The position numbers are program-made. DNA of 43,137 bases from a virus (lineage: Duplodnaviria; Heunggongvirae; Uroviricota; Caudoviricetes): the IMG/VR virus record IMGVR_UViG_2721755646_000007; one strand, written 5' to 3'. This document shows, piece by piece, positions 12,001 through 18,000 of the stretch. Each line of letters opens with the position of its first letter. The stretch's first letter is position 1.

Positions 12001-15000
12001 CGGAACCAAAAAGCATGCGAGCTCTGCCGTCCGGGGTTGTACCTGCCGTTCACCAGCCGCTGGCGGAAGATAAATCACTACTGCCATTTTTCAGCGATGA
12101 GCGGGTGATCCGTGCTGCGGGTGGCGCTGGTGCACTGTCTGACTGGTTATTACGTCACGTGAAATCCTGCCAGTGGCTACACGGTGATTATCATCACAGC
12201 GAAACCGTCATTCACCGTTACGGTACCGGCGCGATGGTGTTGTGCTGGCACTGCGACAACCAGCTGCGGGAGCAGACATCTGATTCACTGGATCAACTTG
12301 CTCAACAGAATCTGGCCGCCTGGATGATTGACATCATCCGTCACGCAATGAATGGCGCACAGGAGCGTGAATTATCTCTGGCTGAATTATCCTGGTGGGC
12401 GGTCCGCAATCAGGTGGCGGACGCGCTACCGGAAGCGGTATTACGTCGTTCGCTGGGGTTGCGTGCGGAAAAAATCCGCTCCGTATACCGTGAAAGCGAC
12501 ATCATACCGGGAGAACAGACCGCCACCAGCATACTGAAGCAGCGCACAAAAAATATTGCGCTACCGCCTCACACCCACCAGCAACAGAACCCACCACAGG
12601 AAAAGACGGTGGTCAGCATTGCCGTTGATCCGGAGTCTCCGGAATCCTTCATGAAACGACCTAAACGTCGCCGCTGGGTAAATGAGAAATACACACGCTG
12701 GGTAAAGACACAGCCGTGTGCGTGTTGTGGTAAGCCAGCGGACGATCCTCATCATCTGATTGGTCATGGTCAGGGCGGAATGGGAACAAAATCCCACGAT
12801 ATTTTCACGCTACCGCTGTGTCGGGAGCATCACAACGAGCTTCATGCGGATCCGCTGGCGTTCGAAGAAAAGCATGGTTCCCAGGTTGATTTAATTTTTC
12901 GTTTTCTTGATCACGCCTTTGCAACCGGCGTGCTCGGGTAAAAGAGGTTACTGATGCGTATAGAGTTTGTTTTGCCTTACCCGCCGACGGTGAACACCTA
13001 CTGGCGACGTCGTGGCAGCACATATTTTGTATCAAAAGCCGGTGAGCGTTATCGCCGGGATGTGGCACTTATTGTTCGCCAGCAGCGGCTGAAATTAAAC
13101 CTGTCCGGAAGGCTGGTGATAAAGATTATTGCAGAGCCACCGGATAAGCGCCGTCGTGACCTGGACAATATCCTGAAAGCACCACTGGATGTGCTGACGC
13201 ATGCCGGACTTCTCATAGACGACGAGCAGTTTGATGAAATCAATATTGTGCGCGGTCAGCTCGTTCCTGGTGAGCGGCTGGGGATAAAAATCACAGAACT
13301 GGAGTGCGCATGAATAACCACTATTTACAGTTTGTGCGTGAGCAGCTCATTATCGCCACCGCTGATTTGAGTGGGGCAACAAAAGGTCAGCTTGAAGCCT
13401 GGCAGGAGAATGCCATGTTCGATACAGGGCGTTACAGGCGAAAAAAAATCCGGTACCGCGATGAAGTGACTGGAAAAATGATAACGCGGGATAATCCACC
13501 AATCCCGGGAAAGCAATCGCTGGCGAAGGTGACGTCAATTCCTCTGGTCAGTCCGGTTGAGTTTTCGACATCATCGTGGCGGCGGGCTGTTCTGTCTCTT
13601 GAAGAACATCATAAAGCCTGGTTGTTGTGGTGTTACAGCGGGAGTATTTGTTGGGAATATCAGATCGCGATAACACAGTGGGCGTGGAATGAATTTAATA
13701 CTCAATCCGGTACCAGAAAAATTGCAGGGAAAACGCAGGAACGCCTGAAAAAATTAATCTGGCTGGCGGCGCAGGCAGTAAAAGCAGAACTTTTTGGTGG
13801 GGAAGGTTATGAATACAAGGAGCTGGCATTACTGGTGGGAGTGACAACTAAAAACTGGTCCAAAACATTTACTCGTCACTGGGTTGCAATGAAACACATT
13901 TTTCACCGACTGGATAGTGAGGCTTTATTGTTTGTAATGAGAACGCGTTCAAAACAAAAGGCGGCATTTTCAAAGCAAAGTGTTGCAAAAGTAGATTGAA
14001 AGGCATATATTTCATGCAAATCTGATATTTTGCCGATTTTGTACGTGATGGCAAAAGCAAACAAAACCCGCCCACAAGCGGGTTTTTTTGTGCCACTTAT
14101 CTCGGATAGACATGGTGAATGCGCTGGTGGAGGAAGTAAGGGTAATTTTTAACCAGGTGATTCTTGAATGCTTGCAACATTGATTTCGTAACGTTATTAT
14201 CCTGCGCCCGGCCCTTTAGCTCAGTGGTGAGAGCGAGCGACTCATAATCGCCAGGCCGCTGGTTCAAATCCAGCAAGGGCCACCATCACATACCGCCATT
14301 AGCTCATCGGGATAGAACGCCAGCCTTCGAAGCTGGTTTCGCGGGGTTCGAGTCTCCGATGGCGGTCCATTATCGGTATTCTGCGTTTTTAGCTCAGCAG
14401 GACAGAGCAATTGCCTTCTAAGCAATCGGTCACTGGTTCGACTCCAGTACAACGCGCCACACTTATTTTCCCGGCTCGCTTTTGCGGGCCTTTTTTGTAT
14501 CTGCGCCACGCCCGGCACATACCAACCACAGAGCCTTTCGGGGGGGGGGGAGCTTACGGAGTGGTCAGTGTGACTTTCTCTGTGGGCAGATCGCTCCCGG
14601 GCGTTGGCTCACCCACCCAAAGGAACGTCACGATGTTTGGTATTTTTGGTAAAAAAAGCCCGCAGAGCGGCAACGGAAATTAAAAAGTTTGAAAAACGCG
14701 ATCTGGCACAGGTGGTGATTAACGCCGCATACCTGGTGGCCTGTGCAGATGGTGAATGTGAGGCATCCGAGAAAGCGAAGATCGAACAGGTACTGCGTAA
14801 TCAGCCTGCGCTGTCCGCGTTTACGTCAGAAATTAATGCGATTAGCGCAACCATTATCGGTCAGCTGGATACGAACTTTAAAACTGGTCGTCGTGCGGCG
14901 TTACGTGAGATCGAGGATGTGAAACACGATACGCGTGAAGCGGAAGATGTGCTGGATGTGGCGGTGGCCATTGCGGAGGCAGACGGCGAAATTGAGCCGG

Positions 15001-18000
15001 AAGAGCGCAAGGTGCTGGAAGAGATTGCCGGTGTTCTGGGTCTTCGTCTGGAGAATCACCTGTGACGGTAAAACTGCGCCTGACTGTGGCTGCACTCCTG
15101 CTGTTTCTGGTGGTGATGGTGGATTTCACCAGCAGAATCATGTCGGTGCTGGCGGATGGGGTGCTGGTCTGCGGCATTGTGGTATTGCTGTGGCCGGTGA
15201 TAAAAAGAAACAGCCTGCATAATGCTTGATTTTTTTGTTTGCTGTTTATTAAAAACACTTCTGCATGGTGAATCCCCCTGTGCGGAGGGGCGATCAGCAA
15301 GAAGGTATATGGGATAATCGCGGATTCAGGTGCTGGTACTGAATTCACCGGGAGGCACCCGGCACCATGCTTTGCCACAAAAGTGTTATTTCTGTTTTTC
15401 TCAAACTATCATCGTTATCCCTTTATTTCCGGCTGCGCATGGCGCGGCCTTTTTTTTACGACCAGCCACTGGCAGATGGTCATCCTGTGATTTGATTCCG
15501 GTTCCGGCTTTTTAACTCTGTTCCTGTACACGGGAGAAATTCGATGTCGATTAAACATTATGATGTTGTCAGGGCGGCGTCGCCGTCAGACCTTGCGGAA
15601 AAGCTGACACACAAACTGAAAGAGGGCTGGCAGCCGTTTGGTAGTCCGGTGGCCATAACCCCTTATACCCTGATGCAGGCGATTACAGCAGAAGGTGATG
15701 TGGTGGTCAGTGGTGCAACTGAGCCGGATTGGTACTACGTCATCGTACTGGCCGGGCAGTCCAATGCCATGGCTTACGGTGAAGGGCTTCCGCTGCCGGA
15801 TTCATACGATGCTCCGGATCCGCGCATTAAACAGCTGGCGCGCCGCAGTACAGTGACGCCGGGTGGGGCTGCCTGCAGATATAACGATATTATTCCGGCC
15901 GACCACTGCCTGCATGATGTGCAGGATATGAGTACGCTGAATCATCCGAAGGCAGACCTGAGCAAAGGGCAGTACGGCTGTGTCGGCCAGGGGTTACATA
16001 TTGCCAAAAAACTGCTCCCGTATATCCCGAATAACGCGGGGATCCTGCTGGTACCATGCTGTCGTGGTGGTTCGGCATTTACCCAGGGCGCGGAGGGGAC
16101 ATTCAGCGAGTCCACGGGGGCCAGCCAGGATTCGGCACGCTGGGGGGTGGGCAAGCCGTTATATCAGGATCTGATTTCCCGCACAAAAGCGGCATTGCAG
16201 AAAAATCCCAAAAACGTTCTGCTGGCCGTCTGCTGGATGCAGGGAGAGTTTGACATGAGCGCCGCCACCCACGCACAGCAACCTGCGCTGTTTACAGCCA
16301 TGCTGGCACAGTTTCGTGCTGACCTCTCCGTGTTTAACGCGCAGTGCCATGGTGGCAGTGCTGCAGATGTGCCGTGGATTTGTGGTGACACGACGTATTA
16401 CTGGAAAAATACATACGCTACCCAGTACGACACCGTGTACGGCGGGTATAAAAACAGGGAGAGTGAGGGCGTTTATTTTGTGCCCTTCATGACAGACGGT
16501 AACGGCGTCAATACCGCCACTAACGCGCCGGCAGAAGATCCGGATATTCCGGCATCAGGATATTACGGTGCGGCATCGAGAACGAATGGAAACCAGGTAT
16601 CATCAAACCGCCCGACACATTTCAGTTCATGGGCGCGCAGGAGCATTATTCCGGATCGTCTGGCAACCGCTATTCTGAACGCAGCCGGGCGCACCTCAGC
16701 CTTCATCAGTGGTAAGGCACCGGAAATCAAACCCTCGCCCGGCGGCAACACGCCATCGGGTCCGTCTGCAGATACGTCCGTTCGCACAATCTCCCTGCTG
16801 CCGGCAGCCGGAGAGGCTGCTGCGCAGGGCTGGAGCATTAAGGATGGCGGAATTCAGTTGTCAGATGGTGTATTTAAGATCACCAGGCAGAGCAATAAAA
16901 CCTGGTCCCTGACGCATCCGGTGGATGACGCAATTACCCTGCTGACACAGGGCGGCAGACTGACCTGTAAGTTCCGCCTGTCAGGCGCACTGACCAACAA
17001 TCAGTTCGGGCTGGGGATTTATCTGTATACGGACGCTCCCGTTCCTGATGGTGTGGCGATGACGGGTACCGGTAATCCGTTCCTGATGTCGTACTTCACT
17101 CAGACCACTGACGGCAGAGTGAATCTGATGCATCACAGGAAAGCCGGAAACACGAAGCTGGGGGAGTTCGGCGATTACGGTAACGACTGGCAGACGCTGG
17201 AGCTGGTGTTCACCGCCGGCAGTGCCACGGTTACTCCGAAACTGAATGGAGTGGCTGGCCCGGCATTCCAGGTTATAAAAGACAGTCTGACACTGGGACT
17301 GAATGCGCTGACGCTGACGGATGTTACAAAAAATGCAGCGTATGGCGTTGAGATAGAAAGTCTGATGCTGGAGATAAATGCACCGGCAGCATAATAAAAA
17401 AAGCCAGCGACTGACCTGAAAAAGAAGACGCTGGCTAAAAGGCCTTATATGTTTGTAGAGACTTATTTTTCACAGACAGCAATGATGCCTGTCAATATAT
17501 TATCAATATGCGGATTGTTTCAGTTACAGATGCTTTATTAAGGAAAAAAACAGCCAGCACTGACTTTCGGTGGAGAGGTGCTGGCTCAAAAGGATAGATG
17601 TACTTCACATGTTGCTTCTATATGGCAGTACATTTTCTGACAGACAGTGACGGATGTTGTCAAGATATTGTGTCATTTATAACCTGAATCAGGGGGTGGC
17701 CGGAATGTTATCTGGCATTTTTAGCAGAGCCTGAATGCCATAATCACGGCTCCCGGCGTTGGCCGTCAGTGGGTGACACTGGCGGCTTTTTTGTTTTTCT
17801 TTACTTTCATTTTCTGTCGGCGGTGACGGAGACATACATCAGATGGAAAAAATCACAACAGGTGTGTCATACACCACGTCAGCGGTGGGGACGGGATACT
17901 GGTTACTGCAGCTGCTGGACAAAGTCTCTCCGTCCCAGTGGGTGGCGATAGGCGTGCTGGGGAGTCTGCTGTTTGGGCTGCTGACATATCTGACGAACCT

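Follow-up and report, generated by a model that had tools for sequence, protein, structure and literature searches.

The stretch of DNA analysed here (the window, 43,137 nucleotides; IMG/VR record IMGVR_UViG_2721755646_000007) is a lambdoid prophage of Escherichia coli O157:H7. Between its late antiterminator gene Q, which is followed by three tRNA genes, and a nanS-p-type sialate O-acetylesterase gene it carries tciA, encoding a TerB family protein, tciB, encoding a 55-residue protein of the DUF3927 family, and an element of the STnc100 type of small RNAs (sRNAs), arranged one behind the other on the same strand (Table 1). The region 14460-15545 (1086 bases) is 100% identical in at least 30 complete genomes, mostly O157:H7, among the matches listed, and at least 80% of it is present in 645 of 5426 complete E. 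coli genomes. An initial annotation of the sequence had described the two genes as a terminator-bounded moron at the locus where Shiga toxin (Stx) phages carry stx, and had regarded such pairs as poorly characterised and as plausible stress or abortive-infection candidates. All the features it listed (terminators, tRNA genes, Q, the TerB and the 55-residue open reading frames (ORFs), the G11 and A7 tracts and nanS-p) were recovered where it had placed them, and the TerB-like assignment is borne out below, as is the presence of a small two-helix membrane protein translationally coupled to it through a GTGA overlap. Two further features, the STnc100 element and the frame conflict between ATG 14633 and the TerB ORF, were not in its list. 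The unit is not a discovery, however; by its sequence it is the known, annotated tciA/tciB pair named in phage P1, and it is widespread. The names tciA-tciB(-tciC) of phage P1 reportedly come from Lobocka et al. 2004. They already appear, after the P1 genes, in the GenBank records of phages JLK-2012 and 434, and the Prokaryotic Genome Annotation Pipeline (PGAP) annotates tciA and tciB in O157:H7 genomes.

Table 1. Features of the window between Q and nanS-p, with the basis of each assignment
Feature	Position	Strand	Basis or detail
Q, late antiterminator	13304..13999	+	PF06323, E 7e-92; PGAP 'bacteriophage antitermination protein Q'
pR'-like promoter	13983-14011	+	promoter scan
tR'-like hairpin, AAAACCCGC-CCACAA-GCGGGTTTT then TTT	14063-14090	+	read from sequence
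Three tRNA genes: CAT anticodon (Ile2/ileZ type), Arg-TCG, Arg-TCT	14210-14459	+	ARAGORN, Rfam tRNA, PGAP tRNA-Ile/Arg/Arg
Intrinsic terminator after the tRNA block	14473..14496 (hairpin 14473-14490 + T run)	+	terminator scan
G+C-rich leader, 136 nt	14497..14632	+	G11 at 14540-14550; Shine-Dalgarno AAGGA 14620-14624
Putative ancestral tciA start ATG 14633 and 16-codon dead-end frame MFGIFGKKSPQSGNGN*	14633..14683	+	A7 at 14651-14657
tciA, TerB family, 142 aa, WP_001303509.1, from TTG 14637	14637..15065	+	PGAP, Pfam TerB, PDB 2JXU
tciB (DUF3927), 55 aa, GTG start	15062..15229	+	PF13064, PHROG 1470
STnc100 / EcOnc27 (sRNA103) / PasD-related Hfq-binding sRNA element	15234..15406	+	Rfam RF02076
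Intrinsic terminator	15431..15457 (hairpin 15431-15449 + T8)	+	terminator scan
nanS-p-type sialate O-acetylesterase (DUF1737 + SASA + DUF6645)	15544..17394	+	Pfam, PGAP

Comparison of TciA with the Pfam TerB model PF05099 gives 53 bits (cut-off 24.4, E 5e-14), the same for the ORF entered from TTG 14637 and for a reconstruction that starts at ATG 14633 and reads through a tract of six A. The protein aligns along its whole length with the solved structure of Klebsiella TerB, 2JXU (E 2.9e-7, residues 15-137 vs. 21-144), and over positions 1-143 of 143 with PHROG 632, labelled 'tellurite resistance' (E 2.5e-68). The acidic motif ADG-x5-E occurs twice in TciA, and in six phage homologues that were compared D39, E46, E51, D117, E123 and E124 do not vary; the paired acidic motifs of TerB are thought to bind metal. 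An AlphaFold model of TciA built from the single sequence reached a predicted local distance difference test (pLDDT) value of 66.5 and a predicted template modelling score (pTM) of 0.30, and Foldseek found nothing below E = 1 in the PDB with it. Since this model is too poor, the TerB fold is claimed from sequence homology. The C-terminal TerB repeat also yields weak, below-cut-off matches to DjlA (E 5e-7) and DUF533 (E 2e-5). They recall the theme of DjlA and YebE (DUF533), in which a TerB domain is held at the inner membrane; there, transmembrane segment and TerB domain belong to one polypeptide, whereas here two coupled genes are involved, and TciA has no J domain.

TciB matches PF13064 (DUF3927) with 62.6 bits (cut-off 25, E 3e-17) and PHROG 1470 ('TciB-like') over positions 1-54 of 54 (E 5.6e-30). 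Its hydropathy profile has two peaks, at residues ~7-20 and ~33-47, and basic residues are found at both ends, from which TciB is predicted to be a two-helix inner-membrane protein. The most conserved stretch, DFTS(R/K)(I/V)MS(V/I)LADG, lies between the two helices. The GTG start of tciB overlaps the stop codon of tciA as GTGA, and the gene has a GGAG sequence of its own 7 nt upstream.

The start of tciA is disturbed in the window. The ATG at 14633 is well placed, 8 nt after the Shine-Dalgarno sequence AAGGA, and opens a frame MFGIFGKK that, with the A7 tract, ends at TAA after 16 codons. The TerB frame, open from 14604 to 15065, is +1 relative to this ATG, and PGAP enters it from TTG 14637, 4 nt downstream of the ATG and 12 nt from the Shine-Dalgarno sequence. 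Phage JLK-2012, ~90% identical to the window across tciA-tciB, has A6 at this place and an ATG in frame with a 143-residue TerB protein; indeed, A6 homologues read MFGIFGKKARR... for 143 residues. The homologous proteins of P1, N4-like, Erwinia jumbo, Pseudomonas, Vibrio and Rhizobium phages have in common an N-terminal motif, M-(F/L)-G-hydrophobic-hydrophobic-x-K-K, in which M1, G3 and K7 never change, and the Shine-Dalgarno sequence upstream of tciA is kept from E. coli to the Rhizobium, Vibrio and Pseudomonas phages. Because this motif is conserved and the A6 relatives are in frame, the ATG is taken as the ancestral start and A7 as a one-base insertion. The native in-frame ATG with TerB domain, a trait of P1-type modules, is thus absent from the window. 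The A7 tract, which the initial annotation had correctly seen at the TerB start, is accordingly no neutral feature; judged against its relatives it is a +1-nt lesion that detaches the native ATG from the TerB frame, in a lineage that then gains an amber codon. Expression of the A7 allele would be reduced, with at best little N-terminally altered TciA made from TTG 14637; its N-terminus, MVFLVKK instead of MFGIFGKK, loses the invariant G3 and keeps the hydrophobic-then-KK character.

The distribution of alleles agrees with a lesion of this kind. A pattern scan of IMG/VR covered 97 loci, in which 50 A7 tracts (all with the 16-codon ATG frame), 46 A6 tracts (mostly with the 143-residue frame) and 2 A5 tracts were counted. 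A GAG to TAG (amber) change 37 codons into the TerB frame is found in 31 of the 50 A7 alleles vs. 2 of the 46 A6 alleles; a separate metagenome scan gave 13 A7 (7 amber) and 8 A6 alleles (0 amber). A neighbour-joining tree built on the 580 nt that follow the tract groups the A7 alleles into what is essentially a single clade, nested within the A6 diversity and holding a few A6 alleles. Inside it the amber alleles make up a subclade, and the window allele (A7, G11, no amber) stands next to that subclade. When identical 900-nt contexts were collapsed, 76 distinct regions remained, 36 of them intact, 34 with A7 (16 amber) and 6 with other lesions. In complete E. coli genomes the amber allele was found at 1004 places in 576 genomes, GAG in the same sequence context at 1416 places in 585 genomes, and the in-frame A6 start at 147 places in 122 genomes, with strains of E. 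coli that make Shiga toxin (STEC), other than O157, among those listed. The A6 and A7 consensus sequences differ at 16 synonymous vs. 5 nonsynonymous sites, and this mostly synonymous divergence indicates that purifying selection acted on tciA during the greater part of its past. D117E, which alters an invariant residue, was seen in A7 alleles only. The full ORF is retained by 22 of about 62 A7 alleles, and an intact tciB accompanies each of the 30 amber/A7 alleles that were examined. The simplest reading of these alleles is a stepwise decay from A6 to A7 and then to A7 plus amber, with the window at the first step; tciA in the window thus looks ordinary and is probably decaying.

Automatic annotation hides this lesion. 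PGAP rescues the A7 allele from TTG and annotates it as intact, and amber copies in RefSeq are still labelled 'tellurite resistance TerB family protein', so that the number of intact tciA genes in STEC comes out too high when it is taken from annotation.

The G tract in the leader varies as well, from G4 to G12 overall: nearly all A6 alleles have G5, whereas lengths from G5 to G12 occur in the A7 clade and differ there even between near-identical haplotypes. This spread may reflect instability after expansion, relaxed constraint or errors in draft assemblies; the G11 of the window is reproducible in at least 30 complete O157:H7 genomes among the matches listed. Folding of the leader (144 nt) was no better than that of shuffled sequences (z -0.31), and with no Rfam match at E up to 1 a riboswitch or other structured leader upstream of tciA was rejected. 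A gating of the Shine-Dalgarno sequence by G-tract length was likewise unpersuasive, its predicted unpaired probability being nearly flat from G4 to G10 and falling only at G11-G12.

Relatives of TciA were found by tblastn in 131 phage records. A DUF3927/TciB-like ORF follows the TerB gene directly in P1 and other P1-like phages and phage-plasmids, including Klebsiella pJN2-26, in the N4-like virulent phages Pollock, FSL SP-058, SP-076, UTK0002 and TR2, in the Erwinia jumbo phage ChrisDB (TciA 69% identical) and in Pantoea LIET2. In P1, Pollock, ChrisDB and pJN2-26 the two genes either overlap by 1 nt or stand 0-3 nt apart, and in LIET2 they overlap by 8 nt; a wider gap of ~60-70 nt precedes the DUF3927/TciB-like ORF of other Klebsiella phages and of Pseudomonas ZY21. 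No recognisable TciB was found by the TerB gene in the more distant phages Pseudomonas AF, Vibrio K481 and Rhizobium TM16. The small ORF is thus kept next to the TerB gene in many unrelated phages, and these comparisons identify tciA-tciB as a real conserved unit of fixed order in temperate and virulent phages.

The pair of phage P1 is a useful reference. Its TciA is a TerB family protein of ~142 residues with the same N-terminal and acidic motifs (40% identity), and its TciB, encoded immediately after tciA next to phage tRNA genes, is a two-helix DUF3927 protein (50% identity). P1 has in addition tciC (35 residues, one transmembrane segment), absent in the window, and its pair lies near ban and not in a Q-dependent late operon, whereas the window has the A7 frameshift and, after the pair, the STnc100 element. 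The tciABC genes were non-essential for P1 plaque formation in a CRISPR interference (CRISPRi) screen (PMC10695390), preparations of P1 lysate were found to contain TciA peptides (PMC9024508), and the authors of the genome of the N4-like phage Pollock remark on its TerB gene as unexplained (PMC4319500).

Between ChrisDB (245 kb; L106 1458-1914) and the window (14591-15047) nucleotide identity is 68% over 457 nt, and the match takes in ~40 nt of leader, where the sequence around the Shine-Dalgarno site is the same (CCCACCCAAAGGAA). It speaks for a horizontal exchange in which the leader moved with the cassette, between phages that are otherwise very different.

In several unrelated types of phages tciA-tciB lies beside phage tRNA genes, which may reflect a shared cargo hotspot or a functional link. 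The sets are Ile2/Arg/Arg in the window, Asn/Thr/Gly in JLK-2012 (L002 2264-3258), Asn/Thr ... Ile2 in P1 (L104 631-2291), Trp/Cys ... Tyr/Gln/Ile/Met in ChrisDB (L106 886-3277) and Arg in Pseudomonas ZY21 (L109 552-1546). P1 trnI, the gene directly after tciC, and the first tRNA gene of the window have 84.8% identity, and 77 of 113 distinct lambdoid contexts have tRNA genes at most 700 nt upstream.

The interval between tciB and the right-hand terminator is filled by the STnc100 element. The match to RF02076 reaches 101.8 bits (gathering threshold 47) and covers model positions 1-206; the 3' hairpin of the model is not aligned, and another hairpin, the terminator 15431-15457, lies 25 nt past the match. 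The block overlaps the Hfq-bound sRNA EcOnc27/sRNA103 of Stx2 phages (PMC12711010; PMC4104026), stands in the same place upstream of a sialate esterase gene, and has been related to PasD (bioRxiv 10.64898/2026.05.13.724894). It is 95% conserved even in Stx phages that have no tciAB, and matches 2837 of the 5426 complete genomes vs. 645 for the whole cassette. EDL933 has eleven STnc100 copies, several abundant without induction and one confirmed by Northern blot, and ribosome profiling (Ribo-seq) placed ribosome footprints on some of them (PMC5331693); a recent study connects clinical outcome with sequence variants of this sRNA where it lies downstream of stx2 (PMC12711010). Anti-sRNAs of the AgvB/AsxR type, convergent with STnc100 as in Sp5/Sp10, were looked for and rejected, there being no Rfam match on either strand.

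Because STnc100 fills the interval before it, the terminator 15431-15457 is best seen as belonging to the sRNA and not to the two genes themselves; it is most likely the 3' end of an STnc100-type sRNA and of any Q-independent tciAB transcript. The terminator scan found 3 such structures vs. 2.3 expected in shuffled sequences and is therefore not enriched. Both hairpins flanking the unit are kept in JLK-2012 and in phage 434, with pairs held through G-U and A-U changes, and the one at 15431-15457 is annotated as a terminator in phage 434. A 35-residue ORF in the sRNA/terminator region (15383-15490, +) was not counted as a gene, its similarity being that of the terminator hairpin read as protein. 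In phage 434 a 62-residue 'putative membrane protein' (L003 2682-2870) reads through the sRNA terminator and has the C-terminal residues …SGCAWRGLFFTTSHWQMVIL in common with the ORF of the window.

The boundaries of homology define the slot. In the stx1 phage 75/02 only 15249-15370 is common with the window, and this block, which starts ~95 nt past the end of stxB, is followed by the esterase gene. PPyecE_EH1910, which has no upstream tRNA genes, shares 14473-15370, with homology starting exactly at 14473; the left terminator therefore travels with tciAB. PPompW prophages share 13900-14546, and ISEc20 (IS110 family) then starts at the G tract (L102 3082-4540). In these PPompW-type prophages everything after ISEc20 up to the terminase genes (tciAB, sRNA, nanS-p and lysis genes) is missing. 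From these boundaries it follows that the interval between the tRNA terminator and the sRNA block holds either stxAB or tciAB as alternative cargo, which places the unit in the stx slot as initially proposed (stxA-stxB, STnc100-like block and esterase in 75/02). The order tRNA terminator, variable cargo (stxAB or tciAB), STnc100-type sRNA and nanS-p is of help in reading the neighbourhood of stx. Both cargoes come after Q, tR' and the tRNA genes and before STnc100/EcOnc27 and nanS-p, and both are presumably reached by Q read-through, whereas their proteins are unrelated. Moreover, stx1 has its own Fur-regulated promoter; for tciAB, a scan for sigma-70 consensus sites in 14497-14632 found none.

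Whether this cargo should be called a moron was also considered, by criteria reportedly due to Juhala et al. 2000. The slot is indeed filled differently in related phages: by stxAB in 75/02, by ISEc20 in PPompW, and in 434 by another membrane protein next to tciB, with no tciA. A promoter of its own was not found in the scan just mentioned, the right-hand terminator is common with the STnc100 element, and the GC content of the unit (0.50-0.57) is like that of the flanks. Thus the cargo part of the initial description holds, and the self-contained part is not supported. Tree et al. 2014 described the region as a moron site downstream of Q/PR' (PMC4104026). Q sets the transcription context, downstream genes being read by Q-modified RNA polymerase, and as tciAB has no promoter of its own in that scan, the pair is expected to be made mainly after induction, like Stx2. 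The description 'cargo of the Q-dependent late operon' fits better than 'terminator-bounded moron', a label that is only partly apt.

Taken together, the explanation that we consider best, and moderately probable, is that the window carries late-operon cargo consisting of tciA-tciB and an STnc100-type sRNA, that the two proteins form a membrane complex during lytic growth, and that the copy found here is damaged. TciA would be a soluble TerB-fold protein with a conserved hydrophobic-basic N-terminus and TciB its inner-membrane partner, both made upon induction after Q read-through. Since the pair is conserved, ordered and coupled in temperate and in obligately lytic phages, we infer that TciA and TciB form a complex at the infected cell's inner membrane, and the presence of the pair in the latter phages suggests a role in infection rather than in lysogenic conversion. 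During lytic growth, and by analogy with TerB-TerC, such a complex might relieve stress on the membrane or the ion balance, or act as a barrier to pore-forming colicins or superinfecting phage. The window copy, with its extra A, would give little or no native TciA and represent the first step of the decay series.

The analogy draws on the ter operon (terZABCDEF; IncHI2 R478, Klebsiella TerB 2JXU). In passages citing earlier work (PMC12054061; PMC4319500), its TerB is said to work with the integral membrane protein TerC, and the operon to confer resistance to tellurite, pore-forming colicins and some phages. TciA has in common with it the TerB homology and the partnership with an integral membrane protein. 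On the other hand, terC, terD, terZ, terA and terE were all absent from the region, where the neighbours are the tRNA genes, tciB, the sRNA and the esterase gene; the partner is a 55-residue DUF3927 hairpin and not a multi-pass TerC; and tciAB is carried by phages, including lytic ones, whereas the tellurite, colicin and phage phenotypes are those reported for ter.

Several points weigh against this explanation. Synteny is the sole basis for the complex, and the predicted topology puts the conserved segment of TciB, DFTSRIMSVLADG, in the periplasm, away from a cytoplasmic TciA. The literature searched gave no functional study of TciA or TciB. The promoter scan covered sigma-70 consensus sites only. 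The evidence for decay includes nonsynonymous/synonymous ratios of segregating variants (12/18 in A7 vs. 14/40 in A6) that are based on small numbers, and initiation at TTG could suffice, the TerB frame being open and identical across O157:H7 genomes and annotated as intact by PGAP.

This last point is at the heart of a rival reading that we consider unlikely, although it keeps some weight, according to which the A7 allele is fully functional from TTG 14637 and serves O157:H7 as a lysogenic-conversion module for tellurite, colicin or phage resistance. The open TerB frame, the locus identical in the at least 30 listed O157:H7 genomes, the A7 alleles with full ORF and the shifted but still hydrophobic-then-KK N-terminus all speak for it. 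However, the distant TTG has to compete with the well-placed ATG just upstream, the invariant G3 is lost, and more than half of the A7 alleles later gained the amber codon. Expression in the lysogen would have to come from a promoter that the scan did not find, behind two upstream terminators, and O157:H7 already has a chromosomal ter operon. The variable tracts could alternatively be taken as a phase-variation switch, or as sites of programmed frameshifting or transcriptional slippage of tciA. An A7 run in the coding start region is the classic layout of a switch, tract lengths do differ from locus to locus (A5 to A7, G4 to G12), and a few A6 alleles stand inside the A7 clade. This reading is nevertheless hardly credible: A7 is essentially one inherited clade and not scattered, both tracts are identical in at least 30 independent O157:H7 assemblies among the matches listed, and other homologues break their Lys codons with G, so that no slippery run is conserved. 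Moreover, the frame to be reached is +1 and AAA AAA A is followed by neither a rare codon nor a stop, access to the Shine-Dalgarno sequence is predicted to depend little on the length of the G tract, and the downstream amber makes switching pointless in most A7 alleles.

The remaining alternatives concern what the slot is kept for. That the STnc100/EcOnc27-type sRNA is the selected element, tciAB being a dispensable, decaying passenger in O157:H7, is a possibility that we take seriously yet find doubtful on the whole. The conservation of STnc100 in Stx phages devoid of tciAB, its wider distribution among genomes, the expressed and Northern-verified EDL933 copies and the frequent tciA lesions are in line with it, whereas about half of the distinct tciA alleles are intact with mostly synonymous divergence, and the pair is kept in phages that have no STnc100 (P1, Pollock, ChrisDB). 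This reading speaks of the present lineage and not of the cassette as such, and it does not conflict with the late-operon explanation given above. An abortive-infection or toxin-antitoxin-like module, with TciB as small membrane toxin and TciA as cytoplasmic antidote or sensor, appears very improbable. TciB, which is small and hydrophobic with two helices and whose gene is coupled to that of a cytoplasmic protein, would suit it, and TerB domains are placed in stress and defence neighbourhoods by Anantharaman et al. 2012, as cited in PMC12054061. Against it, PADLOC-DB 2.0 gave no significant match (the best for TciA being PDC-S48, E 0.006, 13.8 bits, and nothing for TciB), phage 434 has tciB but no tciA, and a host-killing system makes little sense in obligately lytic N4-like and jumbo phages; the persistence of tciB with its own GGAG in 30 of 30 alleles with doubly disrupted tciA is a weaker argument. 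Going beyond the preferred late-operon explanation, one may speculate, at rather long odds, that TciA-TciB is a minimal two-protein Ter system that P1-like, lambdoid, N4-like and jumbo phages deploy in lytic growth, where it would shield the inner membrane (from depolarising defences, colicins or superinfection) or act as a decoy for phage inhibition by host TerB-TerC. The linkage to tRNA genes would then mark an island that keeps the infected cell productive, and the A7 and amber alleles of STEC prophages would be losses of a function for which a domesticated prophage has no use. The mode of action of TerB proteins has been a puzzle for decades, and if the pair were such a minimal version of Ter, a two-gene phage module would be much simpler to study than the seven-gene ter operon.

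Some further features of the prophage are reported for completeness. By analogy with lambda and Stx phages, 13983..14090 would specify a short constitutive late-leader transcript, the position just after Q being that of such RNAs (lambda 6S RNA; StxS in Stx phages). Sub-threshold Rfam matches pile up on the pR'-tR' leader (14008-14092, +; isrK, isrJ, OrzO-P and leader families, 21-25 bits). Two antisense ORFs, at 14878-15378 (minus strand, 166 residues) and 14264-14518 (minus strand, 84 residues), are devoid of Pfam matches and were dismissed as chance ORFs in G+C-rich DNA. Elsewhere in the same prophage, two RNAs match at Rfam gathering level: DicF at 4223-4274 (-), with 76.7 bits, and the sok antitoxin RNA at 11120-11294 (+), with 116.9 bits, the latter in a hok/sok-type locus upstream of a DUF968 gene.

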